Counted from the first letter of the stretch, positions 64 through 58,385 are shown. The stretch: 64,000 bases of DNA from a virus (IMGVR_UViG_3300010340_000930:1653-65652); one strand, 5' to 3'. A program made the numbers and translations. Notes: generated by a model from the letters alone, not told the origin.

Positions 64-1143
64 CTATTGAAATAATACATTCTCAATTTTTTTTGCTAAC
101 TTTACATAATCGAATTGCTTAGCCCATTCTTGAGCAGCCAATCTATTCTTATACAAATTACCATAATTTGATAATAATTCACAAACTTTATCAAGATATG
201 CTTTATAGCAATCCACATTCTCTATGTTTGGATATTGGATGATGAATCCTGTTTCATTGTTCTTAATTACTTCATTTACAGCACCTTTATTAGTTGTGAT
301 AGGTAAACATCCGGAAGCTTGACATTGTGTGAAAACCATACCAAATGTTTCATGATATAAATGTGGATGTATATATAGATTGCTTGTTGCAAATTCATAT
401 GCCAATTGTTTCATGGAAACCAAATCATGTAAAAATACATTTTTCATTTTAGTCAAAGTATTGAATATTACTTGATAATCTTCATCTGGTTTATTATCAT
501 TATAATATAATTTCATACTGGAAAAAATATGTAACTCAAGATCATCTCTTTTGGTTTGTATACAAATATCATCGAACAATCTTGGTAAAACCTCTAGCCC
601 TTTATAAGGTATAGAGCTAAAAATTAATTTATTCTTATTTCTTTCAGCATATCCATAATACAATGATATATCAATTGGATTGCCTATAACATGAAATTTA
701 TTATGGAGATTATTTGGAATCATGAAATACCTAAAGAATGTTTTTTTCTGCCATTCAGATACGCAAAAGATTCCATCCAAGAGTTGTATGATCTCATTTT
801 TATACATCCAAGTAGACACCAATGGTTGATCATATGCATCATGTGAAAAATAATAAATCTTTTTCTTACCAACAAAGTTCTCTAATCCAGATGGAAAAGT
901 TCGATTACAAATAATTAAATCACAATCTTTCAAAACATCAATTGTATATAGGATGTTGTTTAAAACAATTCCATCTTGTTCTAATACATTGTAATTATTA
1001 TTGTTACAAATAAAAACTTGATGTCCTAGTTCAACTAATCCTTTAGCCAATAAAATTAAAGAGGTTTCGCTTCCACCCAAAAAAGTTTCATATGGAGTTC
1101 GCAAATCGAATGATTGACCATTATCATATAATAGTATTTTCAT
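64..1143 (-). CDS. GT4-family (GT-B fold) glycosyltransferase
   Basis: N-terminal GGSETS motif; C-terminal ETFGMVFTQCQASGCLPITTNKGAVNEVI matches the GT4 E-x7-E/Q region. Confidence 0.85.
   Translation of the reverse strand: MKILLYDNGQSFDLRTPYETFLGGSETSLILLAKGLVELGHQVFICNNNNYNVLEQDGIVLNNILYTIDVLKDCDLIICNRTFPSGLENFVGKKKIYYFSHDAYDQPLVSTWMYKNEIIQLLDGIFCVSEWQKKTFFRYFMIPNNLHNKFHVIGNPIDISLYYGYAERNKNKLIFSSIPYKGLEVLPRLFDDICIQTKRDDLELHIFSSMKLYYNDNKPDEDYQVIFNTLTKMKNVFLHDLVSMKQLAYEFATSNLYIHPHLYHETFGMVFTQCQASGCLPITTNKGAVNEVIKNNETGFIIQYPNIENVDCYKAYLDKVCELLSNYGNLYKNRLAAQEWAKQFDYVKLAKKIENVLFQ
745..809. repeat. 65-bp exact direct repeat, copy 1 (inside the GT4 gene)
   Basis: tttctgccattcagatacgcaaaagattccatccaagagttgtatgatctcatttttatacatcc is identical to 1829-1893. 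Confidence 0.95.
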
Positions 1144-12820: not shown

Positions 12821-12825
12821 AAAAA

Positions 12826-12993
12826 TTAGGCACAGGAAACCACGGGGCTTGCCCCGTGGAGGAATGTGCCCCTCCTTTCAATTAAAGTTGTTGTTCTTGC
12901 AGTTAACCTCGTACAGTTTTTCTTTACATTTACTGACGGATTGATTACTTGCATTAAAGGATTTCCGTTCTTATTGATTACATACACATACAA
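12826..12993 (-). pseudogene. iscB: iscB remnant: N-terminal PLMP peptide fused in frame to the extreme C-terminus
   Basis: SD aaggagg, TTG start, YVYVINKNGNPLM (IscB-type VYVxxKxGxPLMP), then a 41-aa tail ending GASPVVSCA; no RuvC or HNH motifs. Confidence 0.7.
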
Positions 12994-12994
12994 C

Positions 12995-13279
12995 GGCTTT
13001 AAGCCTCCTTGTGTATTAGGATTGTGCGTATTCAAAGCTTCGGAGTTGCTTTGAAATCCGACCTCACCTCGACCAGATATGGAAAGGTTTGACGATACAG
13101 ACACTTCGCCTACCACACAGCGATGTTTAATCTGCATCCGAAGAGGAAAGTGCTGGTGCGACACACTTTCGTTCCTAATTTCTTTCCTATCGTTTACTAA
13201 CAACCTTACCTCCTGTTAGTGGTCTGGTAACCTTGTGACTCTCTTTCAAAAGCCACTGGGCAAGCCCAGTGGTAGGTTA
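12995..13279 (-). ncRNA. omega-RNA/HEARO-like scaffold
   Basis: Lies between the left-end hairpin and the PLMP codons; contains ggttaccagacc, ggatgc and tggtcgagg segments resembling omega-RNA blocks (recognised by eye). Confidence 0.6.
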
Positions 13280-13302
13280 TTATATATATTAAATTATGAA
13301 TT
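13279..13302 (-). promoter_or_regulatory. Conserved 24-bp promoter-like motif, copy 1
   Basis: aattcataatttaatatatataat on the minus strand; 23/24 identical to 40455-40478; ends in TATAAT. Confidence 0.55.
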
Positions 13303-13309
13303 AGTGAGG

Positions 13310-13455
13310 AGTATATTTTTTCTTTCTCCTTTCTTTAATACTCCTCCCAATTCTCTCCTCCTTAGAGGAGAGGGGCTGAATTTTTAGACCCCTCAACCCT
13401 GCTTTTTGACCTCGGATTTTAACCCCCAACCAAAAATGGTTCCCAGTCCGAGGTC
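13310..13455. other. Cluster of GC-rich hairpins (terminator and/or structured RNA)
   Basis: gacctcgga...tccgaggtc followed by a T-run, gagggg...cccctc, ctctcctc-ctta-gaggagag and gaggagtat...atactcctc. Confidence 0.45.
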
Positions 13456-13465
13456 TTTTTTTTGC

Positions 13466-14227
13466 TCAAACTTTCCATGTATTGATATACTTCTCCAATT
13501 CCTCTTTATTCATATTAGAGATTTTTTCCAATTCTTTTACATTATTTTTATAATAAGATGTATGTATCTTACTGTTTATTCCTCTGGGATGATCAAGATG
13601 ATAGAGATTATATTCTTCAATTAACCTTTCAACTTGAAATCCCAATTTTTGAAAACGTACAATTCTCTCATCATCCTCAGCCCCCCAAGCTCTGAAATTT
13701 TCATTCTCCATTCCACCCTTAATATAACTATCTCTTCTAAAAAAAATACATCCTCCAACAGAATTCTTTCTTCTTTTTTTACAGATATTCAAATTTATAT
13801 TATCTATACCTAATTCTTCATTTATTATTTTTTTTGTTTGCATTTTATCAACATTCCAGAAGTCCTTGTAAGGAATTAAAAGATCAATATTAGTATTCAA
13901 TAATTTATTATATGCATCAATGTATGCATCAACGTCCAAAAAAACATCTGAATCATAATTCACCACGATTAAAGTGGTGGCATCAATAATCATCTTATTA
14001 ATTATTTTAGTTCTGTGAAAATATTCATTTCTGGAATAAAAAAATTTATATTTATCCACATCATTCGAAAAAAAACTAAAGTAAGGTCTCACCGCTTCTT
14101 CATATAAAAATATATTGGTTTTGAAATTACTTCTTAAAAAACGCAAAACAAAATTTATGTTCTCTATTCTTTCTTCAGAATCAAATCTTATCGGGATTAA
14201 GAATGTGCAATTCGTTAATTCATACAT
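13466..14227 (-). CDS. GT-A glycosyltransferase with a Glyco_transf_7C (galactosyltransferase-like) motif
   Basis: TFLIPIRFDSEER, NYDSDVF (DxD), GGCIFF...GGMENENFRAWGAEDDE. Confidence 0.8.
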   Translation of the reverse strand: MYELTNCTFLIPIRFDSEERIENINFVLRFLRSNFKTNIFLYEEAVRPYFSFFSNDVDKYKFFYSRNEYFHRTKIINKMIIDATTLIVVNYDSDVFLDVDAYIDAYNKLLNTNIDLLIPYKDFWNVDKMQTKKIINEELGIDNINLNICKKRRKNSVGGCIFFRRDSYIKGGMENENFRAWGAEDDERIVRFQKLGFQVERLIEEYNLYHLDHPRGINSKIHTSYYKNNVKELEKISNMNKEELEKYINTWKV

Positions 14228-14232
14228 GGATA

Positions 14233-15192
14233 TTATTCCTCAATAAAATTAGCCAATCTTGATTCATAAAGATTCCACATATTATATCCAGATACAGCAA
14301 ATGATAAAGTATTTCGTGAAAGTTTCTCTATATTTAAGGATTGTATTTCATTCCAATCAATACCATCTGGATGTAATGTGTTAAACAAATAACCGGTTTC
14401 TTTATGCTTTATATACTCATTCATGGTTGATTCATTTACAGCAAAGCAAACCGAACCACGAGATAGTTGCTCAATAAAAGATAAACCAATTCCTTCTCTT
14501 AATCTTGGGCACAAAAATATATTTGAAACTCTCAATATATTATGATATTCTCTTCTTGAATTCCAACCACAATAAGTTATGATCTTGGTTTTATTATATT
14601 TATTCGGTAATTCAAACATTTTTTCATGCCGGGGATCCAATTTTTCTAGATATAAGAATTTTTCTATATTCAATACTTCACATAATCTCAAAAGAAATTC
14701 TTTCGAATATAAATTCGTTCTATTCCAATATGATAAAATCCTACCACCCGAGAAATTGACGGGGTCATACTGCTGATGAAAATATTGTACATATAGAACA
14801 TTTTTATATCTGTATTTTTTTAATAATAAATACAATCGTTCGCAAAATGAAATTATTTTCATATTCTTAGGAATCAATTCCCAAGTGTTCATTTTCCAGG
14901 CATTTACCCAATCCCACATAGGAACCAAGAAATAAGTATTATTATTTTCATTCGATGAAATATGTTCTCTTACTTTTTCATAATTTCTCATGTAAATCGG
15001 AATAAATAAAAATATAATATATGTATCTCTTACCTCTGAAAATCTAGCTAAGTTAAATTTTTTTACATAAACGGTAAAAAATTTCTTAAGTGGATTTATA
15101 ACACTTTTAAAAAATGCATCACTCTTAGTGAGATGCCAGTCTGAATTAACATAACATATTACTACTTTTTTAAGGGGCATATCTATCCTCAA
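14233..15192 (-). CDS. GT4-like glycosyltransferase
   Basis: NIFLCPRLREGIGLSFIEQLSRG...TMNEYIKHKETGYL. Confidence 0.72.
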   Translation of the reverse strand: MRIDMPLKKVVICYVNSDWHLTKSDAFFKSVINPLKKFFTVYVKKFNLARFSEVRDTYIIFLFIPIYMRNYEKVREHISSNENNNTYFLVPMWDWVNAWKMNTWELIPKNMKIISFCERLYLLLKKYRYKNVLYVQYFHQQYDPVNFSGGRILSYWNRTNLYSKEFLLRLCEVLNIEKFLYLEKLDPRHEKMFELPNKYNKTKIITYCGWNSRREYHNILRVSNIFLCPRLREGIGLSFIEQLSRGSVCFAVNESTMNEYIKHKETGYLFNTLHPDGIDWNEIQSLNIEKLSRNTLSFAVSGYNMWNLYESRLANFIEE

Positions 15193-16915
15193 TAAATTCC
15201 TTTAAGATTCGCAATGGATTGAATCTTTTAACAAAAATCTGTTTGAATGTATTTATATACCCAAGGCGTTTCATATTTTCTTTATCTCTGATTGCTTTTG
15301 TAACTATCTCAAAACTTTCCTCTAAATTGTTTAGTTTTATTCTTATAAAACATCTGGGATCAATAAACTTCTCAAGGTTTGGGCATCCGTCATAGAATGT
15401 CACAGAATCACATAAGATACCACCAAAAGCCTTTTCTGTAAAATAATTTTCTTCATAGCAATTTTCAGCATCAAAATTATAATCAGAATTTAATAAAGCT
15501 TCTTCCTTACTCTCACACATACCCTTATAATTTGAAAGGTTAGTTAACAATGAAGTGCTCTCTTTATCCTTAAATTCAGGTAACATTCTTCCATAAATCG
15601 CGCAATGATCAAGTTTATTTAAATAAGATAAAAATTGAATTCTCTTCAGATAATTCAATCCCTCTATATCACATAATTTATTTGAAACGATAGCTGTAAT
15701 TTTATCATAACCTTTATTTGATAAATCAAGATATCGATTCTTTATCGTTGTATAGTTAGAATCAAATCCATACCAATGAAAATCCAGAGTATGATATTTT
15801 TCAATGGAAAATAATTTATAGCAATTAACTCCCTCTATAGGGTCAATAAATTCTTTCGGAAAAGCAAGTTCTCTATACCAACGTGGTTCCGATTGGATTA
15901 TAATTCCTTTCTTTTTAGCTAGATCTTCCTCTAAATTTATAAATCCATAATTAGTTACTATAAAATCATAATCTTCGGTATCTTTAACTAATTTTAAATT
16001 TTTAAATTGAAAATTATTTTCGGAAGAGTACTTATTTATGATTTGTAATGTAGTATTAGAATCAGAATAAATAGAGAAAAAAGCTATCTTGATGCTCGCT
16101 ATATTTTTAGAAGTCTTAATGTTTGGTAAGTTATCACACCATTCCCATTTTTGAATATCTGATAATAATTCTTCCTTGTTTTTATTTATCACAGTATCAA
16201 ATAATAATATCTTGTTCTTTTGACTTTGTTCAGCGCTTATTTTTTGGATTGTATCATCTCTTTTGTGATATAAATGATAAGCAGGATAATCCATACAATA
16301 TATAACATGATCCAATTTGATCAAACGATTATATCTTTCATCATCTTCATAACCCCACCCCTCAAAATGTTCATTCTCCATTCCGCATTTAATAAATTCT
16401 TGCTTATTAAAAATAAAGCATCCACCTGATGCTCCGTATGTATGAAAGATATAATCATCAGATATCAAATTACTAAAATCAGGATTTTCTTTTCTATCAA
16501 TTATGCTGAAAATCTTTTTGGTATACTTTCCTCTTATCATTCTTATTTGTCTATTGTAAGGAAAAGCAAAATTAATTTTACCAAATTCCAACAATTCATA
16601 TGCTTTAATTATATCTCTATGATCAATAAGAACATCGACATCATAAGAGCATACAAATTTTGTATTGCTTAACTTAATTAGTATATTCAGTATCTTAGTT
16701 TTCTGAAAGTAAGTTTTACTGGTTTTTACAAATATGTAATCACATCCAAAATATTTTCTTAGTTTGGGTCGTTGATCTATTTCACCAATAATAATTCTTA
16801 CATTAAAATTATTTTTTAAATATTTAATAATGTATTTTAAATTCCGAACACGTTGAGGAACGTCAAGGCGGAATGGTATAACAATAGTTAAATTATGTAA
16901 ATTATAACTTTCCAT
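15170..16915 (-). CDS. Fusion of a GT7C-type domain and a GT10-like (alpha-1,3/4-fucosyltransferase-like) domain
   Basis: N-half: SYDVDV and GMENEHFEGWGYEDDE. C-half: ITAIVSNK...KRIQFL...IYGR...AENCYEENYFTEK...FYDGCPNLEKFID. Confidence 0.75.
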   Translation of the reverse strand: MESYNLHNLTIVIPFRLDVPQRVRNLKYIIKYLKNNFNVRIIIGEIDQRPKLRKYFGCDYIFVKTSKTYFQKTKILNILIKLSNTKFVCSYDVDVLIDHRDIIKAYELLEFGKINFAFPYNRQIRMIRGKYTKKIFSIIDRKENPDFSNLISDDYIFHTYGASGGCFIFNKQEFIKCGMENEHFEGWGYEDDERYNRLIKLDHVIYCMDYPAYHLYHKRDDTIQKISAEQSQKNKILLFDTVINKNKEELLSDIQKWEWCDNLPNIKTSKNIASIKIAFFSIYSDSNTTLQIINKYSSENNFQFKNLKLVKDTEDYDFIVTNYGFINLEEDLAKKKGIIIQSEPRWYRELAFPKEFIDPIEGVNCYKLFSIEKYHTLDFHWYGFDSNYTTIKNRYLDLSNKGYDKITAIVSNKLCDIEGLNYLKRIQFLSYLNKLDHCAIYGRMLPEFKDKESTSLLTNLSNYKGMCESKEEALLNSDYNFDAENCYEENYFTEKAFGGILCDSVTFYDGCPNLEKFIDPRCFIRIKLNNLEESFEIVTKAIRDKENMKRLGYINTFKQIFVKRFNPLRILKEFIEDRYAP

Positions 16916-16918
16916 AAT

Positions 16919-17560
16919 TTACTTTAGACTCCAATTCTCCCAAATTGTCGGAAAACAATAAGTTTGCACATGTGTATTTCTTAATTTATTCTGTATAGTA
17001 ATCATTCTTTCTAAGTAATTTTCAACATTGGCGTGAAATTGTATTTGAATATTTCTTATATTATTTACATAATTATTTTCTAATATATATTCCATCAAAT
17101 TATATTCTTCTCCTTCAATATTTACTTTCATCAGATCAATATGCTAAATTTTATATTCCATTATGTAATCAAAGAAATCAATTAACTTTGCCTTACCCAC
17201 TGTTATAGGTTTGTCATTATTAAAAATTATGTTATCATAATGTATAGTTGTTTTATCATTATCAATATATAATAATGTTTCTTTAGTACAGTTAGACAAT
17301 CCAAAATTGTTAATCTTGATTTTATAATTATCTGCAAATTTATTTTTTATATTTATATAAAATTGTTCGCACAATTCAAAAATATGTATCTCACATGAAT
17401 ACATTTGTAAAATTTTTTCTGTCCATTCACCTTTATATCCACCGAGATCAAAAACAATGGAGTGCTCGTTTAAATCATACGCAAACCTATAATTATTATC
17501 TCTATTGAACTTTTCCCATATATGGAACATCTCAGTTCGTTTGATGATCATTTGTATCAA
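16919..17560 (-). pseudogene. FkbM-family methyltransferase interrupted by a single in-frame TAG (17144-17146)
   Basis: VFDLGGYKGEW, IHIFE, NNFGLS, then EYKI-TAG-HIDLMKVNIEGEEY...IQIQFH in the same frame. Confidence 0.8.
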
Positions 17561-17564
17561 TTCC

Positions 17565-18239
17565 TTATTGGAGAAAATGATGCTTTATATATGAATCATC
17601 ATTCAATTCTTGAATTAATTTCTCGGAGAATGTTTTTTTGAATATTTCACGTTTCTCCTCATACATCTTATCATTCAAGAACATTGTCACATTGACTGGT
17701 TCTAGATCACTACATAACTCTCTTACTTTTTCTTTAGTTAGATATTTTTTAATATGATGTAACTTATCAGTATTGAATCTAATTGAGACAAAATCACAAA
17801 TCTTTTTAAATTCATTATCATCCTTTAATAAATTTTCATAAGTTACAGTAAGCATATTACCCTTAAATTCTGTATGCCATTTTTTCAGATGTTTATCATA
17901 CTCATGCAGGAAATAAGAAGCTGCATTGTATGAATCTAACTTATGACGATGATAATACATATAAGAGAAAACAACAGATAAAAAATCAATGCGCTCTAGA
18001 TAGATAATATTACTTCCTTGAATTTGATTTATACGATATTCAATATTTTCTTTTCCATCAAGACATAATCCATGAGCCATCTGAACAAAATATTTATGAT
18101 TTTTCTGTTTTTTTAGATACGCATATTCAGTTCTCAAAGGATGACCTGTATACAATTCCATCAATAGCGCCAAATAATGTCTTCCACATCTGGGATAGCT
18201 GATCAGATATATCTGTTTATATTTTTTTAGATTTTCCAT
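17565..18239 (-). CDS. Sulfotransferase-domain protein
   Basis: PAPS-binding-loop-like LISYPRCGRHYL and the C-terminal LTVTYENL motif. Confidence 0.62.
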   Translation of the reverse strand: MENLKKYKQIYLISYPRCGRHYLALLMELYTGHPLRTEYAYLKKQKNHKYFVQMAHGLCLDGKENIEYRINQIQGSNIIYLERIDFLSVVFSYMYYHRHKLDSYNAASYFLHEYDKHLKKWHTEFKGNMLTVTYENLLKDDNEFKKICDFVSIRFNTDKLHHIKKYLTKEKVRELCSDLEPVNVTMFLNDKMYEEKREIFKKTFSEKLIQELNDDSYIKHHFLQ

Positions 18240-18249
18240 ATTAACAATC

Positions 18250-19755
18250 TCACTTTCTGATTTCTTGGTGATTTTTATTCACAGCAATTATTTTTTTAGT
18301 CAAACCAGAAAGATAAGTATATCCAGTTTCAGGATAACAATATGATGGGGATAATATCTTAGTGGGGCAATTCTCGATAAGATATTTATTCCAATGTGTT
18401 TCATCATGCCAAACCGCAATTATATTTTTCTTCAAATCTTTGTTTATATTTTCTGATAAAATTTTACACGCACGTAAATATGTGTCACGTTTCCCACCCT
18501 GAAATCCTCCAGCATAATACATCTTAACTGTTCTTTTATCCATTATAAATGCTGTAGAATTGAAATTTTTTTCTAAAGGAAATTTTTTTGGACTTTTATT
18601 ATAAAATCCAGGATGTATAACAGCAACCAAATCTGATAATATCTCATGATCCTGTATATCATGAACAAATTTCATATCTACATCAGAATAAAATAAATAA
18701 TCCATATTGCTAAAAATATTTTTATTCTTCCAAATAAAATTGTATCTCAATAAAGTCATAAATGGCCAGGGTTGATGTTCGATAAATATCGGACTCACGT
18801 CCTCATAAAAGAAATTATGTTTGTGATTTGTAAATAAATAAAATCTTACATTATGATTTGTAAGAAAAAAATTTTTTGCTGAATCATACAAAGGTTTGAA
18901 AAAATCTATATATTTGTTAGTGGCAATTAATATTAATCCGATATTAAGTTTTTTATTCGTACGCATAATATTTTTATCTCTTCGTATATAAATATATGTA
19001 TTTAAGTCAAATGTATCAAACCGTTTGGTTAATTTCCACTGTCTCAAAAAAAATCTGTATTGATTTCTTATTCTTTTTTCTTCCTCTGCCATAACCACAT
19101 TTAAGGTTTTGCACATACTATCATCATGCAATCGAATATAATGCAAAACTTCTGGGACGTTTTCAAGTTTATACCCCGCCATCAAACATCTTGCCCACAG
19201 ATCATAATCTTGACACCCCTTTAATTCACAGTTAAAGCCAGATAATGAGGAAAATACCTCCCTTTTCAAAACCATTGAGCTAACTATAAAATGATTCTTC
19301 AAATGAAAATTATGAAAGATATCATTATATTCATATGATATTCTAGGATTTCCACAAACATTATCTGGCGATTCCCTAAAATAGGATCCCAAACAACCAC
19401 AACCATCTAAATCATTATTCTCTATATGCTTAATTATTTTTTCATACTTATTTTCACATGAAATATCATCACAATCATGAAATGCTATATATTGACTATT
19501 ACTAAACTTCACTCCATTATTCCTAGCTGTTGATAATCCTTTATTGCAATCATGTTTTATTATTTTTATTTTTTCTGGATTTTTCTGTTCATAATCTCTT
19601 ATAATATCATATGTATTATCTGTACTTCCATCATCAACAATTATAATGTGAAAATTCTCAAGAGTTTGTTTTAGAAGAGAATCCAACGCTTCGGATATAT
19701 ATTTTCCCCCATTGAGAACGGGAACAATGATATCTAGAAGAGATATTTCATCCAT
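18250..19755 (-). CDS. Fusion of a GT2 domain and a GT6 (ABO blood-group-type alpha-1,3-Gal/GalNAc transferase) domain
   Basis: GT2: IIVVDDGSTD, FHDCDD, DYDLW. GT6: LIATNKY, YSDVDM, IHPGF, YYAGGFQGG, WHDETHWNKY. Confidence 0.9.
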   Translation of the reverse strand: MDEISLLDIIVPVLNGGKYISEALDSLLKQTLENFHIIIVDDGSTDNTYDIIRDYEQKNPEKIKIIKHDCNKGLSTARNNGVKFSNSQYIAFHDCDDISCENKYEKIIKHIENNDLDGCGCLGSYFRESPDNVCGNPRISYEYNDIFHNFHLKNHFIVSSMVLKREVFSSLSGFNCELKGCQDYDLWARCLMAGYKLENVPEVLHYIRLHDDSMCKTLNVVMAEEEKRIRNQYRFFLRQWKLTKRFDTFDLNTYIYIRRDKNIMRTNKKLNIGLILIATNKYIDFFKPLYDSAKNFFLTNHNVRFYLFTNHKHNFFYEDVSPIFIEHQPWPFMTLLRYNFIWKNKNIFSNMDYLFYSDVDMKFVHDIQDHEILSDLVAVIHPGFYNKSPKKFPLEKNFNSTAFIMDKRTVKMYYAGGFQGGKRDTYLRACKILSENINKDLKKNIIAVWHDETHWNKYLIENCPTKILSPSYCYPETGYTYLSGLTKKIIAVNKNHQEIRK

Positions 19756-19759
19756 GATT

Positions 19760-20572
19760 TTATATTCTTATCCAATTTGATGGAATTAAATCCTTAGTTA
19801 CATTCTTATTGGATTGAGAAAACCATTGTACGGGAGCAATAACAATCTTATTTGGATTTTGATTAATCCAAGCCGCCCACCATGAAAAAGTACTATTTGC
19901 AATAATATTATGCTTACATTTGCTCATCAGGAAAAATTCTTCCAAAAATAAACTTGAATCATTTTCTTTTGAGATATATTTCATATTTAAAGAATCATAT
20001 CTCAAATTTTCTTTTGCCCATTTTATATCATCTGAAAAAACAAAGAATGTATAACTTTTTGTTTTTCCTTTCTCTAACAAATGCTTGATGGATTTATCAT
20101 AATAATCCAGAGAACAAACTCCATGAAACTGTATATTCTTACTACACAAATAATCCCCCCTTCTTATATGGATTGACACTGAATCTGAATTTATTATTTC
20201 TTTCTCTAATTCATAATATGAATCATGTAATTTATTTTTTGGTGTAATTTCTTTTAACAGAAAATTTCTTATATCTTTGAAATATTTTTCAGATTGCCAA
20301 TATCCTTTTAAAAAGGAATTATTCTTAATTAAATGTACTAGAGGATCATAATGAAAAAATTTCTCTTTGATTATTTTGAGATTATTAAGTGTTTTTATCT
20401 CTTTGAACTGTGTATTTAAATTATCTAAGCACAAATCACGTTTCGTATGAAAATTTTTTAAATTCTGTGTATATAAATACAGATCCGTTTTATTCTTTAT
20501 GGATAATTTTCTCCCCAAACCATATTGGAACAACTGATTTCCCAATCCTCCACTCAATTGCACAACAATCAT
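19760..20572 (-). CDS. GT11 alpha-1,2-fucosyltransferase
   Basis: GGLGNQLFQY, GYWQSEKYF, SIHIRRGDY, FSDDIKWAK, CKHNIIANSTFSWWAAW. Confidence 0.92.
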   Translation of the reverse strand: MIVVQLSGGLGNQLFQYGLGRKLSIKNKTDLYLYTQNLKNFHTKRDLCLDNLNTQFKEIKTLNNLKIIKEKFFHYDPLVHLIKNNSFLKGYWQSEKYFKDIRNFLLKEITPKNKLHDSYYELEKEIINSDSVSIHIRRGDYLCSKNIQFHGVCSLDYYDKSIKHLLEKGKTKSYTFFVFSDDIKWAKENLRYDSLNMKYISKENDSSLFLEEFFLMSKCKHNIIANSTFSWWAAWINQNPNKIVIAPVQWFSQSNKNVTKDLIPSNWIRI

Positions 20573-21807
20573 TTCACTAACGTTCCAGGATCTTCCTCAT
20601 AAATCATAATGGTGATTAAATCATCTTTTTCCAATCCTCTCAGATTAAATCCCAGCAATTCAATTTGATTTAAAGGAGTTAATCGCCAATGATAATCTCT
20701 ACGCAATTGCCCAAACTTACAATATACTTTCAATAACTCACAGTTCTCAATCGTCTCAGGAATAGGAATGAAAATTGACTTCTCAGTTGGAAGAATTGCA
20801 TCATTATTAACCAATTCATAATCTTCTTGAGTAAATATATAAATAAAATTATCTTTATAAACCAAATCCTTTCTGATATAATTACTATCATCATTATCCA
20901 TATAAGAAACCATGATTTCGTGGGGGGCCAGGATATTTGTTCCTTCAAACTCAGATTCCATAACATATTGAAATCCACTTCCAATATCAATATCAATTTT
21001 ATGACATCTGATAGGAAATTTCTCAGCACAAATTATCAAGTGCGTGGGCAAAGCAGCTTCCCATTCTATGGAGATTGATAATCTGTGCTCACCAATATCG
21101 TCTCCTGGCCCCCCATACTTGTCTGATCCATCACTTATTCCACTCAATTTTATAAATGGTTCAATTGAAAATGGAAAAGTAAAATACAAATCTGATGAAT
21201 CCTTACTTATTGTTTTTATCAATCTGTTTTCACATTTTGAATTATTCCAATCTAATTGATATGATTCACCTGTATATGGATTTTCATATGTATATGCCTT
21301 TAGTTCGTTTGGTAAAATGAAATATCCATTGACTGATTTTGGAATGATAACTCTTCCAATACCACCAAAGAACTGGAAAGCCAATAATCTGGTATCTAGC
21401 AATTCATATATGCTGGAACACCAAATTGTAACCTCAAAAGTTCCTTGATAACGATTTAAAACGGGAGAGATAACAACATTATCATCTTCATAAATCTTTG
21501 GTTCATACATATATGTTCCAATATCTTGCCTGAAATGAGGATATCCATGCAGAAATTTTCCTTCGTATTGCTCTGGTTCAAAATCATACCCAGGATCAAA
21601 TACAATAAAAGGATATCTTGGATTCCAATTCTCACCAGCTTCTTTCTTTCTCTGGCGATAATGCTCTAAAGCTTTTTCATATGTACTAATAATTATATCA
21701 TTGGTTCTCAAGAACCATTCAGTTCGGAAGAAATCTGCAATGGATCTAAAAAAAGAACCCATAACATTATGTATGAACACATTATGATAAGTTGCATACT
21801 CTCTCAT
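20569..21807 (-). CDS. Hypothetical protein, possibly virion structural (tail-terminator-like)
   Basis: 412-aa ORF with ATGA overlap with GT11; structural role is only an impression. Confidence 0.45.
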   Translation of the reverse strand: MREYATYHNVFIHNVMGSFFRSIADFFRTEWFLRTNDIIISTYEKALEHYRQRKKEAGENWNPRYPFIVFDPGYDFEPEQYEGKFLHGYPHFRQDIGTYMYEPKIYEDDNVVISPVLNRYQGTFEVTIWCSSIYELLDTRLLAFQFFGGIGRVIIPKSVNGYFILPNELKAYTYENPYTGESYQLDWNNSKCENRLIKTISKDSSDLYFTFPFSIEPFIKLSGISDGSDKYGGPGDDIGEHRLSISIEWEAALPTHLIICAEKFPIRCHKIDIDIGSGFQYVMESEFEGTNILAPHEIMVSYMDNDDSNYIRKDLVYKDNFIYIFTQEDYELVNNDAILPTEKSIFIPIPETIENCELLKVYCKFGQLRRDYHWRLTPLNQIELLGFNLRGLEKDDLITIMIYEEDPGTLVK

Positions 21808-22449: not shown

Positions 22450-25092
22450 TTAATCATCATCAGCTGTGAAAAACTTTTCTTTAAGAACAAAGCGATCCAG
22501 ATATTCACCAAGCTTATCTCTTTGTTCTTGATCAAATCTTCGAAATCCTTCATCATGGGTTATTGTGGCTAATCGTATATGGTTAAAAGAGGTTTTTGCT
22601 TCTTCTTCCAATGTGAGCATAACATCTTTCTTATTCAATTTTCTTTTTTTATAATCCATCATAATATTATCCATTGCTCTTTTCAGACGCCACATAAGTT
22701 CATGTAATCCAAAATGCTCTTCCAAGAAAGATACAATCTGATTATAGTTTTTAACTTCTTCCTTCATTCGCCTGAATACTTTGATATCATCAAAGTCTGT
22801 CAATAATTCTTCAGCTATCTCGAAAAACAATTTCAGGGCCTCTACCTTACTTTTTCCATAAATTAAATCTCCTTTACTTCTATCAGGTTTAAAATTTGTA
22901 GGTTTAGGCATCTTCAATTCAATAACATTTTCTTGATTGGTTTTACCGTTTTTCTCTCCTTTCCGTTGCAATTTTATATCTTCCGGAAGATTTTTATCTT
23001 CAATTTCATCGGCGACTTCTTGAATATCCATAATTGAATATCTGATTTCATTGGTGGTATTATATTTAACATACTTATCTTTTGGAATATCGAAATATTC
23101 AAATACGATGTTTATATTATCTGGTACTAAATCATAAACTTTGTCATAAATGGTGCAATATACCTGGAAGACCATATCGACAGTTTTGGTAAAGGATTCA
23201 ATATCATATTCAAAGTTGATCTTACCATTGGTTAGCTTTTTATACTGAACAACCAATTCTTTTAACGCACCTGATTCCAAACAATTCTTATGTAGTTTCA
23301 ATACATCAGACTGCAAGATCTCATATTTCTCTGGATTATCTTTTATATGATATGGTTTAATTAACATCTGAATGAAAGGTACATAAAATGTTTTCAAGTA
23401 TTGAATATTCAGATAAAAATGACAAAGGAATGGATTGCCATTAATATACTCATTCAATTCACGTTCTTTCTTAAATTGCTTTTTGTTCTTAATGATTGCT
23501 TTAATATATTCCCAGGAATGCAGATATGCGGATGTAGTATATAGCATACCGACTATCATATTATACAATTCAGGATATTTTTCTTTGGTAACCACAATAT
23601 CCAATTTCGGATAATGGCTGTACCTGGGATGATATTTATCTTTACCATTCTGTTCAAAATATTGATAAACAAATCTCTTATAAATCACCATACTTATGTA
23701 TTGAGAAAAATTAAAGTTCGGATCATTCTCAACATATTCAATTTGCTCATATGGAACCTTAGAGGTTTTCATAACTTCTGTAAATGGTTTAAACAAATCG
23801 TCTTGAGTATTTGGTTCCATGAAATCATAAGCAGTTCTGAGTTCAGAAATTCTGCTCAGGTCATTCTCCAAATAATTATCAATAAATAAATTACCTGTGA
23901 TTCTCTTATTCTTATCAATATGCTTATCCAAATCAGGAATATCTCGATAAAAAACTTCTTCTGGATCAAATGGTTTTATTGGTGACTTAATTTTCTTATT
24001 CTTTTCAATAATCTCATTTATACCCTTTATCTCAATTATCGGAATTTTTTCTTCAACTGTATTTTCAAACGTTTCCTGAATAGAATTATTATCAACATTA
24101 TTATTTTGTTCAACGGAAATATCAATTTCTTCATCTGAAATATCATTGTTTTCATTAGTTTGAGATACCTCTTCGGTAGTTTCTATCGGTTTTGTTTCAA
24201 CAATATTATCACTTATTTGTTCTTCAATCATATCTGAATTGAATTCATCTTCAGATACTTCTTCAGAACATTCAAATTCAATTTGATCATCAATAACAGC
24301 GTTTGTATCATCTGAATTCAGATATGAATTCTCTGGTCTAAAAAAAGTACCATCGGAAAAAGATTTTGAGCTAATCATCATCTTTAAATCTTCAATCTGA
24401 TTCAATATCAATTCAGTTAAGCTTTTCTGTAAGTTAGAAGTAATTTGACCAATACTATCAGTAATTATTGATGTGGATTTCACGGAAATTTCTTCGAATT
24501 TCGAGGTGAAATCTTGAGCAAGTTTCTTAAAATTATTCTCAATTCTGTTCTCATTACATATATTAATATAGTTGGAAGAAATAGACAGATAATTCTTTTT
24601 CATTTCCACAAATAAGTTATACATATTATCAATTTGAGCTGGAGTCAAATAAGCAAACAACTTAATTGCGGAACTATTGGTAGGATCAATTATTTCCACT
24701 CTGCATCTAGCGCCATCTGTTGTTTTGGTGAATTTAAAATTAATCTCAATCTTCTTTTTAGGTAAAGCTTTCACAATTTGAAAGATAAACCCTTGATCAT
24801 AAATCTTATTAATACCATTGGATATCGCCGAATTATACTTGTTTATAAATTGCGAGATCTCGATAAATCCAAAATCAAAAGATATCTTTCCGGTAAATGT
24901 TCCTGGGCGTCTCAAAGTTAAAATCATTTTAGAACTATTATTATTCACGCCCCATTTATCACTTTCAGACATAGAATTATCCAATTGCAACATTATATAG
25001 TTCTTAGTAAGATTATCCTGAATTCCAAAAATATTCAGCTTAAAATTAGTCCATCTAGCTTCATCGGTATTCTGATTTCCATTCGTCATCAT
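22450..25092 (-). CDS. Large hypothetical protein with an acidic low-complexity linker
   Basis: 880-aa ORF with a central E/D/N-rich segment; no catalytic motif recognised. Confidence 0.65.
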   Translation of the reverse strand: MMTNGNQNTDEARWTNFKLNIFGIQDNLTKNYIMLQLDNSMSESDKWGVNNNSSKMILTLRRPGTFTGKISFDFGFIEISQFINKYNSAISNGINKIYDQGFIFQIVKALPKKKIEINFKFTKTTDGARCRVEIIDPTNSSAIKLFAYLTPAQIDNMYNLFVEMKKNYLSISSNYINICNENRIENNFKKLAQDFTSKFEEISVKSTSIITDSIGQITSNLQKSLTELILNQIEDLKMMISSKSFSDGTFFRPENSYLNSDDTNAVIDDQIEFECSEEVSEDEFNSDMIEEQISDNIVETKPIETTEEVSQTNENNDISDEEIDISVEQNNNVDNNSIQETFENTVEEKIPIIEIKGINEIIEKNKKIKSPIKPFDPEEVFYRDIPDLDKHIDKNKRITGNLFIDNYLENDLSRISELRTAYDFMEPNTQDDLFKPFTEVMKTSKVPYEQIEYVENDPNFNFSQYISMVIYKRFVYQYFEQNGKDKYHPRYSHYPKLDIVVTKEKYPELYNMIVGMLYTTSAYLHSWEYIKAIIKNKKQFKKERELNEYINGNPFLCHFYLNIQYLKTFYVPFIQMLIKPYHIKDNPEKYEILQSDVLKLHKNCLESGALKELVVQYKKLTNGKINFEYDIESFTKTVDMVFQVYCTIYDKVYDLVPDNINIVFEYFDIPKDKYVKYNTTNEIRYSIMDIQEVADEIEDKNLPEDIKLQRKGEKNGKTNQENVIELKMPKPTNFKPDRSKGDLIYGKSKVEALKLFFEIAEELLTDFDDIKVFRRMKEEVKNYNQIVSFLEEHFGLHELMWRLKRAMDNIMMDYKKRKLNKKDVMLTLEEEAKTSFNHIRLATITHDEGFRRFDQEQRDKLGEYLDRFVLKEKFFTADDD

Positions 25093-25099
25093 TTTCTTA

Positions 25100-28649: not shown

Positions 28650-29948
28650 ATGTTCTTAGAGAATCCTACCATAAGAAAAATCTTGGATAAGAAAAGTGCA
28701 AGAAAGAAAGTGATAGAATCCATGCTTATAAAGGATTTTAGGAAGTTTGGTTTTAATAAGCAGTTTCTAACCAGGAAATATGAAACTGTTGAAGAAATGA
28801 AAAAAAGTATTCCCGGTGTTGTTTTAGCTGAATCTGTCAGTAATGCTGAATTACGGGTAGGATCGGAAGTAATTAATCTTAAATCAGGTGACTTATATAT
28901 TATGCCATTGGATTTCTATATAAGGGGTTTTACCAATGGAGAGTTCTTTTATTTGAAGCCTTATAAACAAAGATTTGAAGAATATTTTCGAAGATATCTT
29001 GGTTATGATTTAAATAATAAGAAGATCCTGATCTGGCGTGTTGGTGGATTGGGTGATTTAATCTTTTCTCAACCTCTTGTGCAATTTCTTAAAAAGACAT
29101 ATCCATCTTGTTATATTGGATTTGCAACTGCACCTGAGAACAGATTTTTATTTAAGGCTTGGCCTGATGGATTGATAGATGATATTTCAATTATTCCATT
29201 TAAGCTTGATTATTTTTCGAAGTTTGATTATCATTTGACCTTTGAGGGAGCAATTGAGCGTTGCAAGGAAAGTGAAAAAGTTAATTGTTATGATATCTTT
29301 AAAAGAGTAGCTAACGTCGATTTCGATGTTAGAGATTATTTACCGAGATTGATTCTAGATCAAGAGGAAGTTAATAAGTTCAAGCGGTTCGTTCCTGATA
29401 ATACTATTCTTATTCAAATGAGAGCATCTTCTCCATTGAGAATGATGGCAACGAGAAAATGGATAAAAATAATAAATAAATTAGCAGAATTGGGATTCCA
29501 TGTTGCTGTAATTGATTCTCAAGATAATCAAAAGATGTATGATGAATTTTTAATTCAGCAATTTGGTCTTAAGAATAAACTTACCAACTTATCCAAATTC
29601 TCAAAAACCATATATAACGGAATTCATATGCTAGCCAACTGTAAAGGATTTATTGGAATCGATAGTTCCTTCACACATATTGCTCCAGCTATAGGTATAC
29701 CCTCAGTTGGAATATATGGACCATTCCTGGGGGATTTGAGAATGAGATATTATAAAAATGCGGATTGGGTTGATGCTTCAAATTATGATAATATATGTGG
29801 TAGATATCCTTGCTTCTTTCATCGAAGCGAGGTAGAGATATGTCCATATTATAGTGATCATCAACCTGTTGGATGTCTAAATAGTATTTCTGAGAATGAG
29901 GTTATAAATAAATTATTGAATCTTTTAAACTCACAAAAAGAAAAATGA
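28650..29948 (+). CDS. GT9 (heptosyltransferase-like) glycosyltransferase
   Basis: KILIWRVGGLGDLIFSQP; FIGIDSSFTHIAPAIGIPSVGIYGP. Confidence 0.85.
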   Translation: MFLENPTIRKILDKKSARKKVIESMLIKDFRKFGFNKQFLTRKYETVEEMKKSIPGVVLAESVSNAELRVGSEVINLKSGDLYIMPLDFYIRGFTNGEFFYLKPYKQRFEEYFRRYLGYDLNNKKILIWRVGGLGDLIFSQPLVQFLKKTYPSCYIGFATAPENRFLFKAWPDGLIDDISIIPFKLDYFSKFDYHLTFEGAIERCKESEKVNCYDIFKRVANVDFDVRDYLPRLILDQEEVNKFKRFVPDNTILIQMRASSPLRMMATRKWIKIINKLAELGFHVAVIDSQDNQKMYDEFLIQQFGLKNKLTNLSKFSKTIYNGIHMLANCKGFIGIDSSFTHIAPAIGIPSVGIYGPFLGDLRMRYYKNADWVDASNYDNICGRYPCFFHRSEVEICPYYSDHQPVGCLNSISENEVINKLLNLLNSQKEK

Positions 29949-56456: not shown

Positions 56457-58385
56457 ATGGGAATAGTTCTCAGACATGCTTTCAATATCTCTATTATAAT
56501 TCCAACTGTTAATCATTTAGAGAACTGCTTAAAACCGTGTATTGAAAGTATCTTGAAATATACTGATTTCTCTAATTTGGATATTCAGATTGTAATTATA
56601 GCAAATGGATCAGACGAAGATACAATCAAGTATTTACAAGAATTGTATCAGAAATATATTTCTTTTATAAATATTATTCATATCGATCAACCTATAGGAT
56701 TTCCAAAAGCAATTAATGAAGGATTGAAATATAGTTTTGGTAAATATATTGTTATTCTAAATGACGATGTTGAGCTATTGCATCAAAGACCAAATACCTG
56801 GTTAAATCTTTTATATAAGCCATTTATAGAAGATCCTATGATGGGTATTACGGGATGCCATAGCCTGATTTGTCCAGTTACCAATGAGGAATTTATTTTA
56901 TTCTTTTGTGCAATGATTAAAAGAGAAGTTTTTTCTGCAGTTGGATTGCTAAACGAGGCATTTAGTCCAGGTTATGGAGAAGATATTGATTTTTGTATCA
57001 GAGCAAAGAAATTCGGATATAGTATAAGAAATGTGAATACCAATATACATTATCCCAATGGAAAAGATTATGTGGTTGGAGATTTTCCAATTTCTCATAA
57101 AGGTGAAATGACAGTTCATGACATATCCAATTGGGAAGAAATAAAACAAAACAATAATGAATTACTAAGAAAATTTTACGCTCAAGATAATATCAAAAAG
57201 GAAAATATTTCATTGTCCAAATTGATGGAAGAAAAGAAAATTACAAATGAGAATATATTGATCACGCATATCAATTCAAACAATGTGACTGTTGGGATTT
57301 CGACCAAGGATCGCTATAACATATTACCTTTAACATTGGAAGCTGTTATCAATCAAACAGTTATGCCCAAGAAAATATTTATATTTGATGATAGTGATAA
57401 TGAGATTGATATAAAAAGTGATATTCTTTACACAAGTCTCCTTCATATAATGAGACATAAAAATATTGAATATGAAGTATTGAGAGGAAGTAAAAAAGGT
57501 CAGGTACACAATCATCAAACTTGTTTGGAATTATCCTCCACTGAATTTATTTGGAGAATTGATGATGATAATATACCTGAACCTAACGTATTGGAAGCTT
57601 TATTAAATGAAATGAATAAAGATAAAAATATTGGGGCAATTGGAAGTTTAATTCTGGAAACAAATGCAACGAATAGAAGTCTACCTTCATTTGTAACCGG
57701 AGATATTCAAGATATCTATTTTGGATTGAATCCACAATGGTTTATCCATAAAGACCCCAGAATAATTGAAACCGATCATTTGCATAGTAGTTTTTTATAT
57801 AGAAAAAGAGCAGGGTTTCCAAAAGGATATTGTTTGGAGTTAAGCAGGATTGGATTTCGAGAAGAAACCATTTTTACTTATGAAATGAAGAGAAATGGTT
57901 GGAAATTATTTATTCATCCAGATATTATTACCTGGCATTTGAAAACAAAACATGGAGGAGTTAGAGATTTAGATATCAAATTAAAGAATGAGGATGAAGC
58001 TTTATTTTATCAGAAACTAACTACAGAATGGAACATCAAACCAAGATATTTAAAATCATATGTATTGCATAATGGTATTGGGGATCATTTTATGTTCAAA
58101 ATGTTATTACCTGAGATAAGAAAAAAATATCAAGATAAATATAAAATTATTATAGCTTGTTGCCATCCCAAGGTATTTTCTGATATAAAGAATGATGAGA
58201 CAATACAGATAGTTAATGTTGAGGATGCTATCAATGCCTTTGGATCATCCTGTATACAAAAGAATTGTGTTTACACGTGGTGTAAGAAAAATAATTGGGA
58301 TGGTAGTTTGTTGGATGCTATGAGGATATTATATCTTGGAGAATATACAAATGAAGAAAATCATAATCAGTCCGTATTCAACTAA
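56457..58385 (+). CDS. Multi-domain glycosyltransferase (two GT2 domains plus a short GT9-like N-lobe)
   Basis: ISIIIPT...ILNDDV...GEDIDFC; VTVGISTKDR...RIDDD...FREET; C-terminal HNGIGDHFMF. Confidence 0.8.
   Translation: MGIVLRHAFNISIIIPTVNHLENCLKPCIESILKYTDFSNLDIQIVIIANGSDEDTIKYLQELYQKYISFINIIHIDQPIGFPKAINEGLKYSFGKYIVILNDDVELLHQRPNTWLNLLYKPFIEDPMMGITGCHSLICPVTNEEFILFFCAMIKREVFSAVGLLNEAFSPGYGEDIDFCIRAKKFGYSIRNVNTNIHYPNGKDYVVGDFPISHKGEMTVHDISNWEEIKQNNNELLRKFYAQDNIKKENISLSKLMEEKKITNENILITHINSNNVTVGISTKDRYNILPLTLEAVINQTVMPKKIFIFDDSDNEIDIKSDILYTSLLHIMRHKNIEYEVLRGSKKGQVHNHQTCLELSSTEFIWRIDDDNIPEPNVLEALLNEMNKDKNIGAIGSLILETNATNRSLPSFVTGDIQDIYFGLNPQWFIHKDPRIIETDHLHSSFLYRKRAGFPKGYCLELSRIGFREETIFTYEMKRNGWKLFIHPDIITWHLKTKHGGVRDLDIKLKNEDEALFYQKLTTEWNIKPRYLKSYVLHNGIGDHFMFKMLLPEIRKKYQDKYKIIIACCHPKVFSDIKNDETIQIVNVEDAINAFGSSCIQKNCVYTWCKKNNWDGSLLDAMRILYLGEYTNEENHNQSVFN

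Follow-up and report, generated by a model that had tools for sequence, protein, structure and literature searches.

We found that seven packed genes of an uncultured wastewater/activated-sludge myovirus probably form a conserved accessory glycan-assembly cluster, a reading to which we give, for the enzymology alone, a probability of about three in four. The genes lie on IMGVR_UViG_3300010340_000930:1653-65652, a stretch of 64,000 nt that was analysed as a whole and is called the window here. Among the genes are relatives of the enzymes behind the human H, A/B and Lewis blood groups. The likely product, as predicted from the encoded enzymes, is a fucosylated, GalNAc-capped (A-like) oligosaccharide.

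The contig is of low GC and represents an incomplete myovirus genome. The predicted T4-type portal, prohead protease, PolB and tail terminator mark the element as a phage, in agreement with the earlier note; the PolB shares just 27% identity with T4-like phages. The phage is not a cyanophage and originates from sludge and wastewater metagenomes. The seven co-oriented, tightly packed genes described in the earlier note were all found between 13466 and 20572 on the minus strand (Table 1), spaced by 3–10 nt or overlapping, in the order GT11, GT2-GT6 fusion, sulfotransferase, FkbM-like methyltransferase, beta4GalT-like GT-A/GT10-like fusion, GT4 and a second GT-A paralogue. At one edge, the start of GT11 overlaps by 4 nt the stop of the tail-terminator gene, whose AF2 model (pLDDT 84.7) matched in Foldseek the phiKZ neck (2.8e-8), the T4 portal-neck-tail complex (6.9e-5), the P1 tail (2.8e-4) and T4 gp15 (4huh); beyond the other edge lie iscS, a clamp loader and a primase. 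The GC content of the cluster equals that of the remaining contig, and no convincing terminator was found inside the cluster run. DNA-modification genes (QueC-like, radical-SAM QueE-like and TGT/DpdA-like) are also present in the window.

Table 1. Genes of the cluster, the adjoining tail gene and possibly related glycosyltransferase genes in the window.
Gene	Position	Strand	Matches and remarks
Further GT4 glycosyltransferase, possibly related	64..1143	-	PF00534 1.5e-14, PF13439 2.5e-9, phrog_2170
Stand-alone beta4GalT-like GT-A	13466..14227	-	PF02709 4e-9
GT4-type (GT-B fold) glycosyltransferase	14233..15192	-	PF00534 (Glycos_transf_1) 2.5e-10
beta4GalT-like GT-A + GT10-like fusion	15170..16915	-	PF02709 (Glyco_transf_7C) 1.4e-8, N-terminal half only
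FkbM-like SAM methyltransferase gene	16919..17560	-	PF05050, read through; interrupted
Sulfotransferase	17565..18239	-	PF00685 (Sulfotransfer_1) 2.8e-6
Bifunctional GT2-GT6 glycosyltransferase	18250..19755	-	PF00535 2e-35 + PF03414 1.5e-43
GT11 alpha-1,2-fucosyltransferase-type gene	19760..20572	-	PF01531 2e-34
Tail-terminator gene (T4 gp15-like, myovirus)	20569..21807	-	Directly upstream of GT11, overlapping
GT9 (heptosyltransferase)-like gene, possibly related	28650..29948	+	PF01075 2.4e-9
Two-GT2-domain protein, possibly related	56457..58385	+	PF00535 1.2e-30, two stretches

Among the families named in the earlier note, GT11, GT2, GT6, sulfotransferase and GT4 were recovered by Pfam and GT10 by profile and fold, while GT7 was not established and FkbM was borderline; in a domain HMM check of the kind that the note had proposed, here with Pfam, GT6 and GT11 passed the Pfam cut-offs and the GT10 half failed PF00852. 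The GT11 protein, 58–67% identical in relatives, scored 119.6 bits with PF01531 (cut-off 23.9) and has the GDP-fucose motif HxRRGD as IHIRRGDY. In the GT2-GT6 fusion, residues 1–255 form the GT2 domain (PF00535, 122.4 bits, cut-off 23.3), in which alignment A1 shows D96 and D97 to be invariant, and residues 266–500 form the GT6 domain (PF03414, 149.2 bits, cut-off 25), which reached 190 bits with NCBIfam NF041524, under the subfamily cut-off of 250. The closest PDB match of GT6 was human GTA (1.4e-33), with which DVD (358–360) and WHDE (449–452), the segment holding the equivalent of GTA Glu303, are aligned; DVD, His233, Gly235, Gly268 and WHDE of GTA are retained and Leu266 is replaced by Ala. 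By its DVD motif the enzyme is of the DXD type. Because of Gly235, Ala266 and Gly268, small residues at GTA positions 235/266/268, its donor pocket is predicted to be A-like and to take GalNAc, and since Asp326 of GTA is Pro here, acceptor binding may differ from that of GTA. The GT2-GT6 architecture is also found in the homologues P0002 and P0003. Among uncharacterised metagenomic proteins, GT6 homologues are often multi-domain glycosyltransferase fusions, with partners including GT11, sulfotransferase, FkbM, GT8 and GT29, and GT6 fusions with GT2 and FkbM are present in IMG/VR viral loci. Beyond its own lineage, no IMG/VR homologue exceeds 50% identity to the GT6 domain; the nearest cellular homologues of the domain are from Chlamydiae, Dependentiae, CPR and DPANN.

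The GT-A/GT10 fusion consists of an N-terminal GT-A half of about 258 aa and a GT10-like C-terminal half of about 323 aa. The assignment of the latter to GT10 rests on profile and fold and not on Pfam, in which no match, PF00852 included, was found even at E<=1. A phmmer match to plant FucTA (1e-4) was obtained, the homologues P0161 and P0162 carry PF00852, and over the FENxxxxYxTEK region profile A3 matched the Helicobacter pylori alpha1,3-FucT 2nzw (4e-12). Foldseek ranks 1–7 were taken by 2nzx, 2nzw, 2nzy and 5zoi, with a model reliable only for residues 160–305. Both the alpha1,3-FucT motif and an H. pylori FucT-like fold are thus seen. The H. pylori enzyme, a GT10 of Lewis-antigen mimicry, was the best profile and fold match and its nucleotide-binding motif ENxxxxxYxTEK is retained, but only the C-terminal Rossmann half aligns, and the domain is here fused to GT-A and poorly modelled in its N-terminal half.

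The GT4 protein scored 40.6 bits with PF00534 (cut-off 26.4) over its C-terminal half only and has a 52% identical counterpart at the same position in the related locus L085. The stand-alone GT-A is a paralogue of the N-terminal half of the GT-A/GT10 fusion (33% identity) and belongs to a family of 1966 representatives at E<=1e-3. The best match of its profile A4 was K4CP, a chondroitin synthase of GT2 (1.6e-8); beta4GalT1 and beta4GalT7 came next. PF02709 was found and PF13733 was not, and because the best match is a GT2 enzyme, GT7 membership of these domains is not established; both PF02709 proteins are predicted beta4-Gal/GalNAc-T-type GT-A enzymes.

The two tailoring genes are less constant. 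The sulfotransferase scored 27.4 bits with PF00685 (cut-off 22), has a 5'-PSB-like PRCGRH loop near its N-terminus and gave no NCBIfam match. It is lineage-specific, being 100% identical in L081, a strain 99.7% identical to the window, and absent from L082, L084, L085 and L137. The FkbM-like gene is split into two ORFs (17144–17560 and 16919–17131) by an in-frame TAG at 17144–17146, a stop that falls within the domain; in L081 this codon reads GAG (Glu), and the L084 copy is intact. Against a PF05050 cut-off of 22.7, the window sequence read through scored 21.1 bits, L081 20.1 and L084 22.7, exactly the cut-off, and the intact L081 copy reached 31.6 bits with TIGR01444 (cut-off 37.7). The gene thus resembles an FkbM-type SAM methyltransferase, with borderline formal membership; in the window it falls under the curated cut-offs and its ORF is interrupted.

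Comparison with two relative lineages at 58–70% amino acid identity showed that the core order is kept and not shuffled, which agrees with what the earlier note would expect of a functional series. The sulfotransferase is absent from both lineages and FkbM from one, and both genes are dispensable in relatives. Across lineages, the glycosyltransferase genes have diverged about as far as the phage genes on either side. The L084 cluster is interrupted by 3 kb of inserted sequence, which carries genes on the opposite strand. GT11 was co-oriented with GT6 and no more than 10 kb away in 58 of the 80 IMG/VR GT6 loci; in 33 the distance was at most 1.5 kb. The GT11/GT6 pair is thus widespread in viruses, and this strong genomic linkage backs the functional link drawn in the earlier note. 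PaGT6 of Parachlamydia, a metal-dependent GalNAc transferase, strictly requires a Fuc-alpha1,2-Gal acceptor (Thiyagarajan et al. 2012, PMC3516806), and the DXD clade of GT6 includes it together with the GT6 of cyanophage P-SSM2 (PMC3516806). The GT6 of the window falls in this clade, sharing a minimal catalytic domain with DXD, and differs by its fusion to GT2; its function is a prediction. By contrast, BoGT6a and other GT6 enzymes of the bacterial symbiont type are NXN and metal-independent.

Annotations of similar clusters in marine cyanophages go back a long time, and the GT11/GT6 pair also occurs in cultured ones such as P-SSM2. We compared the 'LPS/cell-surface' clusters of the T4-like cyanophages P-SSM2 (PSSM2_257-271), P-SSM5, DSL-LC03, B3/B23, S-CAM9, ACG-2014f, Bellamy and S-SCSM2R, which are likewise co-oriented, densely packed multi-GT clusters in myoviruses, with putative functions. 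The P-SSM2 cluster has GT2, GT1/4, GT11 (29% identical to that of the window), a methyltransferase and GT6 (41% identical), a co-oriented set shared by the window; GT11 is immediately upstream of GT6 in DSL-LC03 and adjacent to it in B3/B23 and others, and the S-SCSM2R cluster lists GT10, GT11 and GT2. The implication of the earlier note that phages are known for single GT6 or GT11 genes only is therefore wrong. Unlike the cyanophage clusters, the window has the GT2-GT6 and GT-A/GT10 fusions and a sulfotransferase, and it adjoins a tail terminator where those adjoin hli/psbA-type AMGs. It also lacks the epimerase/dehydratase genes found there: as the earlier note had remarked, no nucleotide-sugar synthesis domain was found among window ORFs of at least 250 aa, on an incomplete contig.

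From these genes we infer donors, step order, timing and acceptor as follows. Soluble enzymes would work in the cytoplasm, taking nucleotide sugars, PAPS and SAM from the host, and make a short branched oligosaccharide. A GT-A enzyme, either the GT2 half or one of the two beta4GalT-like proteins, would lay down a beta-galactoside, GT11 would add alpha1,2-fucose to give an H-like structure, and the DXD-type GT6 half would add alpha1,3-GalNAc as an A-like cap. A second fucose would probably come from the GT10-like domain and an inner sugar from GT4. Optional, lineage-specific tailoring would consist of sulfation and O-methylation, the latter knocked out in this genome. The full series from precursor through H, A/B and Lewis to sulfation and methylation, as proposed in the earlier note, goes beyond what the genes bear out, with FkbM broken and both tailoring genes dispensable in relatives.

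The sequence gives no pointer to the acceptor, for which virion proteins and host LPS/LOS compete, the virion being slightly favoured. We hold weakly that the phage's own virion proteins could be glycosylated late in assembly, as the virions of mycobacteriophages and chloroviruses are, and the full explanation with this acceptor is tentative, somewhat short of even odds. We counted for it the GT11/tail-terminator overlap, the lack of an internal terminator and the position of the two-GT2-domain gene, which is flanked by fibre genes with Mtd_N domains. Freeman et al. reportedly described, in 2023, virion glycosylation by virus-encoded glycosyltransferases in mycobacteriophages (cited in PMC12619734). 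Chloroviruses have multi-domain glycosyltransferases that glycosylate the virion. Both resemble the present system in their soluble virus-encoded enzymes, some of them multi-domain and linked to methyltransferases, without membrane export machinery, but they use different enzyme families, and virion glycosylation by the window system is putative. Against virion acceptors, the tail-terminator adjacency may merely mark a module boundary (compare the split cluster of L084), the GT9-like gene hints at LPS core, and, to our knowledge, every bacterial GT11, GT6 or GT10 enzyme that has been characterised works on lipid-linked glycans.

The glycans might instead remodel the host envelope, a contender that we also place below one half. 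Working at the inner membrane face, the soluble enzymes would extend glycans that are linked to Und-PP or belong to the lipid A-core (LOS-type), with export via host MsbA/Lpt or Wzx/WaaL, and infected cells would show a new fucosylated glycan, so that superinfection would be blocked or adsorption of progeny to infected cells or debris stopped. Such a role is what is usually proposed for the homologous clusters of cyanophages (PMC12801897), and the characterised bacterial relatives all act on lipid-linked glycans. In Escherichia coli O86, WecA, WbnH (GT4), WbnJ (GT2), WbnK (GT11) and WbnI (GT6) build stepwise a blood-group-B-like pentasaccharide (PMC4506291); the four glycosyltransferase families are shared with the window. 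O86, however, assembles its glycan on Und-PP and carries genes for Wzx, Wzy and GDP-fucose, which the window lacks. Against an envelope target, no initiating phosphoglycosyl transferase, flippase (Wzx) or polymerase (Wzy), which mark a Wzx/Wzy-dependent O-antigen cluster, and no ligase was found by Pfam and hydrophobicity in the 64-kb window or in 78 viral loci; no hydrophobic or membrane segment was seen in any cluster protein or neighbour, and none of the 78 IMG/VR GT6 loci of at least 10 kb had an ORF with at least 6 predicted TM segments. Since the contig is incomplete, membrane components could sit elsewhere in the genome, and LOS-type extension is compatible with their lack, as it can do without a dedicated flippase or polymerase. 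The GT9-like gene fits an envelope target, at 2e-10 to NCBIfam LPS heptosyltransferase I/II, far under the cut-offs. Host remodelling is harder to reconcile with a phage that looks lytic (T4-like replication module, no integrase in the scanned ORFs), with the coupling of the first cluster gene to a late structural gene, and with the occurrence of the module in phages of many habitats, presumably with many hosts that would all need a suitable acceptor. Transfer of the glycans to modified phage-DNA bases, for escape from restriction, appears highly improbable. Phage glycosyltransferases can decorate DNA with diverse glycans, as Pyle et al. are said to have reported in 2024 (cited in PMC12619734), and the QueC-, QueE- and TGT/DpdA-like genes would suit such a role, but GT11, GT6 and GT10 are glycan-on-glycan enzymes for which we know of no DNA substrate, a hydroxymethyl-pyrimidine synthesis gene was not seen in the window, and the 7-deazaguanine pathway yields no glycosyl acceptor. 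The nonsense codon in FkbM and the variable middle of the cluster could point to a decaying or passenger island without present function, or to misassembled bacterial DNA; we give this very little credence, as the tail terminator-GT11 and GT7C-type gene-iscS junctions recur in independent assemblies (L081, L083–L086), the other six genes are intact and 52–69% conserved, as are the phage genes that flank them, the protein is present on dozens of contigs, and GC does not set the cluster apart.

Returning to virion acceptors, the most far-reaching form of this explanation is that the tail, neck or fibre carries a mucin/blood-group-like glycan that is fucosylated, capped with GalNAc and in part sulfated or methylated, and that owes its synthesis wholly to the phage's own soluble enzymes, and that the GT11-GT6 module is not a host-LPS modifier; we consider this unlikely. 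If it were true, this module, widespread among uncultured phages, would be a general kit for virion glycosylation.

The contig of 65,652 bp, which is nearly fully covered by the window, carried no terminal repeat, and the genome is therefore incomplete. Its claimed phage origin was borne out by a family-B polymerase (phrog_262 at 4e-125, with only 27% identity to T4-like polymerases), a DnaB-type helicase, a T4-type portal (PF07230, 1e-18), a prohead protease, and three fibre genes with Mtd_N domains. GC content was about 30% throughout, and the cluster was compositionally not foreign. It was located at the junction of the structural and replication blocks and shared its strand with both. Past a 645-nt downstream gap, in which several strong GC-rich hairpins were observed, were a class-V aminotransferase (IscS-like), a methyltransferase, a phosphoribosyltransferase, the clamp loader, and primase. 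The same phage was found in public data as dozens of contigs with 98–100% protein identity, and more distant relatives came from activated-sludge assemblies.

Positions of the features in and around the glycosyltransferase cluster
Feature	Position	Strand	Remark
Further GT4 gene	64-1143		
Gap downstream of cluster	12821-13465		
GC-rich hairpins in gap	12840-12859, 13252-13273, 13351-13374		
Glycosyltransferase cluster	13466-20572	-	seven genes
FkbM-like ORFs	17144-17560, 16919-17131	-	same frame
TAG between them	17144-17146	-	
Tail-terminator gene	20569-21807		412 aa
orf880	22450-25092		
Stretch upstream of orf880	25093-26350		1.26 kb
GT9 (LPS heptosyltransferase)-like gene	28650-29948	+	first plus-strand gene at the contig's divergent point
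Mtd_N fibre genes	50432-52843, 54598-56409, 58859-64000		
Two-GT2-domain gene	56457-58385		between Mtd_N fibre genes
GC rise in last fibre ORF	62001-64000		GC 0.47

The seven genes of the cluster were co-oriented and tightly packed, as the earlier note had described, all on the minus strand and separated by 3–10 nt or overlapping. The GT11 (Pfam, 2e-34), sulfotransferase (Sulfotransfer_1, 27.4 bits, exceeding the cut-off), and GT4 (Glycos_transf_1, GT4 type) labels were confirmed, and GT2 (Pfam, 2e-35) and GT6 (Pfam, 1.5e-43) were indeed combined in one 501-aa protein. The label GT7C stood in part: Glyco_transf_7C domains were present in the 253-aa protein and in the N-terminal half of the 581-aa protein, but membership in GT7 was not demonstrated, and the profile of this large family (1966 representatives at E ≤ 1e-3) best matched the GT2 chondroitin synthase K4CP, followed by beta4GalT1 and beta4GalT7. 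Judged by these profile matches, the proteins are predicted to be beta4-Gal/GalNAc-transferase-like GT-A enzymes. No hydrophobic segment was detected in any cluster protein, and among window ORFs of at least 250 aa no phosphoglycosyl transferase, flippase, polymerase, or nucleotide-sugar enzyme was recognised, the last in agreement with the earlier note. A terminator scan found no convincing terminator inside the cluster, and neither the combined sigma-70 promoter and terminator scan nor the T4 late-promoter motif TATAAATA gave a useful rise over background, so that the timing of expression cannot be read from the sequence.

The best solved relative of the GT6 domain was the human blood-group A enzyme GTA (1.4e-33). 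The metal-binding DVD, His233, Gly235, Gly268, and the WHDE segment with its Glu303 equivalent were kept, and Leu266 and Asp326 were replaced by Ala and Pro, respectively. The domain belongs to the DXD clade defined by the enzyme of cyanophage P-SSM2 and by Parachlamydia PaGT6, which transfers GalNAc with Mn or Mg to fucosylated acceptors only (PMC3516806). The small residues found at both 266 and 268 favour GalNAc as the probable donor, that is, an A-type activity. The nearest cellular DXD-type GT6 genes in genome_contigs (loci L163–L216) were from Chlamydiae, Dependentiae/Babeliaceae, CPR (Nomurabacteria and Saccharibacteria), and DPANN, and these taxa carry no information on the host of this phage. 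These nearest homologues of the phage-type GT6 fall mainly in obligate symbionts and ultra-small cells.

Support for the GT10 label is indirect. The C-terminal 323 aa of the 581-aa protein had no Pfam match, even at E ≤ 1, but phmmer aligned this half to plant FucTA (1e-4) across the fucosyltransferase motif, two of its few database homologues carried PF00852, and a six-sequence profile matched the alpha1,3-FucT of H. pylori at 4e-12. An AF2 model from the six-sequence alignment was poor (pLDDT 54.5); its confident C-terminal half, used alone, returned H. pylori alpha1,3-FucT at Foldseek ranks 1–7. On this combined evidence the domain is termed GT10-like.

The FkbM-like domain, also proposed earlier, extends across two ORFs that are separated here by a TAG, so that the gene is broken, and the read-through scored 21.1 bits, just below the cut-off of 22.7. 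Global recoding of TAG was considered and rejected: the codon terminates seven ordinary ORFs of the window, including the helicase gene, and reading it as sense lengthens ORFs little. The corresponding codon is GAG (Glu) in L081, a near-identical metagenome contig (99.68% identity across 11.1 kb), and the gene is also intact in L084, a relative with about 60% identity. The TAG is therefore either a single natural nonsense mutation in this assembly or an artefact of assembling.

Comparisons with other lineages of this phage type divided the cluster into stable and variable parts. In L083–L085 (about 60% identity), orf880, orf190, the tail terminator, GT11, and GT2-GT6 were followed by a 3-kb insert and then by FkbM, GT-A/GT10, GT4, GT-A, iscS, the methyltransferase, the phosphoribosyltransferase, and the clamp loader; the sulfotransferase was absent. 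The insert, at 11567–14570 of L084, lay between GT2-GT6 and FkbM, where the window has the sulfotransferase, and contained four small opposite-strand ORFs, a 143-aa ORF, and an RNA ligase (PF09414, 5.6e-22). In L082, L086, and L137 (65–70% identity), GT-A/GT10 directly followed GT2-GT6, and both the sulfotransferase and FkbM were absent. Across lineages, the glycosyltransferase genes were 52–69% identical, similar to the flanking phage genes (30–77%). These gene orders and identities support a stable core of GT11, GT2-GT6, GT-A/GT10, GT4, and GT-A interrupted by one variable slot, presumably for tailoring enzymes. That the island is functionless or misassembled is unlikely.

Multi-enzyme glycan clusters with GT11 and GT6 are already known in phages, cyanophages among them, and annotations of the GT11-GT6 module in cyanophages date back to 2005. 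Among cultured phages, many Kyanoviridae carry GT6: P-SSM2 has one cluster with GT2, GT1, GT11, a methyltransferase, GT6, and four epimerases, and in DSL-LC03 GT11 immediately precedes GT6. S-SCSM2R encodes 13 glycosyltransferases, including GT10, GT11, and GT2 genes (PMC12801897), and survey papers count both GT6 and GT11 among phage AMGs (PMC12016548, PMC12053484). A single-protein scan of IMG/VR and a scan of genome_contigs with profile alignment A2 returned no matches. A profile scan of IMG/VR found GT6 relatives on at least 327 IMG/VR contigs, with identity never above 50%. When ORFs within about 10 kb of GT6 were classified by iterated profile searches in the best 80 of these loci, GT11 was present in 58, GT2 in 50, FkbM-like genes in 38, GT-A (7C type) in 23, and GT10-like genes in nine; the sulfotransferase was found in none. 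In these 80 loci, GT11 was always on the strand of GT6, 33 times within 1.5 kb, gene order varied, and GT6, GT11, GT-A type, and GT10-like genes occurred together only in L006 and L009. GT6 was fused in metagenomic proteins to GT2, GT11, sulfotransferase, FkbM, GT8, GT29, or an epimerase. Among the multi-enzyme accessory modules of uncultured phages, GT11-GT6 ranks with the most recurrent. This cluster adds the fusions and the sulfotransferase to the known kind, lacks sugar-nucleotide genes, and has a non-cyanophage setting.

The reading of the cluster as a glycan assembly line is partly supported. Its best-supported part, the enzymology, would begin with a GT-A enzyme making a beta-galactoside, which GT11 would fucosylate at O-2 and the DXD-type GT6 would cap with alpha1,3-GalNAc, in parallel to WbnJ, WbnK, and WbnI of E. 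coli O86 (PMC4506291). Capping of the GT11-fucosylated product by GT6 would explain the tight linkage of the two genes. The remaining steps are proposed from family analogy only: a second fucosylation by the GT10-like domain, the GT4 reaction, and, as options, sulfation or methylation.

The gene next to GT11, whose stop overlaps the GT11 start, bears on the acceptor. Its product had no Pfam or PHROG match, but its AF2 model (pLDDT 84.7) matched the phiKZ neck (2.8e-8), the T4 portal-neck-tail complex (6.9e-5), the P1 tail (2.8e-4), and T4 gp15 in Foldseek, and an ESM Atlas lead was consistent with these. By its fold, the product is a myovirus tail terminator (gp15-like), of a family with about 50 metagenomic clusters. 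Weak matches of its profile to E2 ubiquitin-conjugating enzymes (residues 85–139, 0.003) are probably due to chance, since the fold search yields tail terminators. Upstream, orf880 had no lead from Pfam, PHROG, PDB, or Atlas, and the stretch beyond it had no ORF of at least 100 aa on either strand.

We lean slightly towards the phage's own virion proteins as the acceptor, because all enzymes are soluble, translation of GT11 is coupled to that of the tail terminator, the multi-domain enzyme architecture is virus-style, and no export parts were found in the window or in 78 viral GT6 loci of at least 10 kb, where no ORF had six or more predicted TM segments. Rewriting of host LPS/LOS is almost as likely: LOS-type extension of the lipid A-core requires no dedicated flippase, the characterised bacterial homologues all act on lipid-linked glycans, and the window contains a GT9-like gene, which scores far under the NCBIfam equivalog cut-offs. 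Glycosylation of DNA by the cluster enzymes is unlikely. The two-GT2-domain protein encoded between the fibre genes is a candidate enzyme for glycosylating fibres. The last fibre ORF is 3'-open (>1713 aa, Mtd_N at the N-terminus), and its GC content rises from about 0.31–0.33 towards the end.

The cluster is compact, its enzymes are all soluble, and it requires no sugar-nucleotide genes itself. With its natural variants, which have or lack the sulfotransferase or FkbM, and with the FkbM nonsense allele, it lends itself to reconstitution in a heterologous host. The two bifunctional enzymes, GT2-GT6 and GT-A/GT10, may be useful for synthesis of A- or Lewis-type oligosaccharides. The identity of the acceptor would tell whether phages in the environment use host-like glycans to shield or target themselves, or whether they rewrite the LPS of their hosts.
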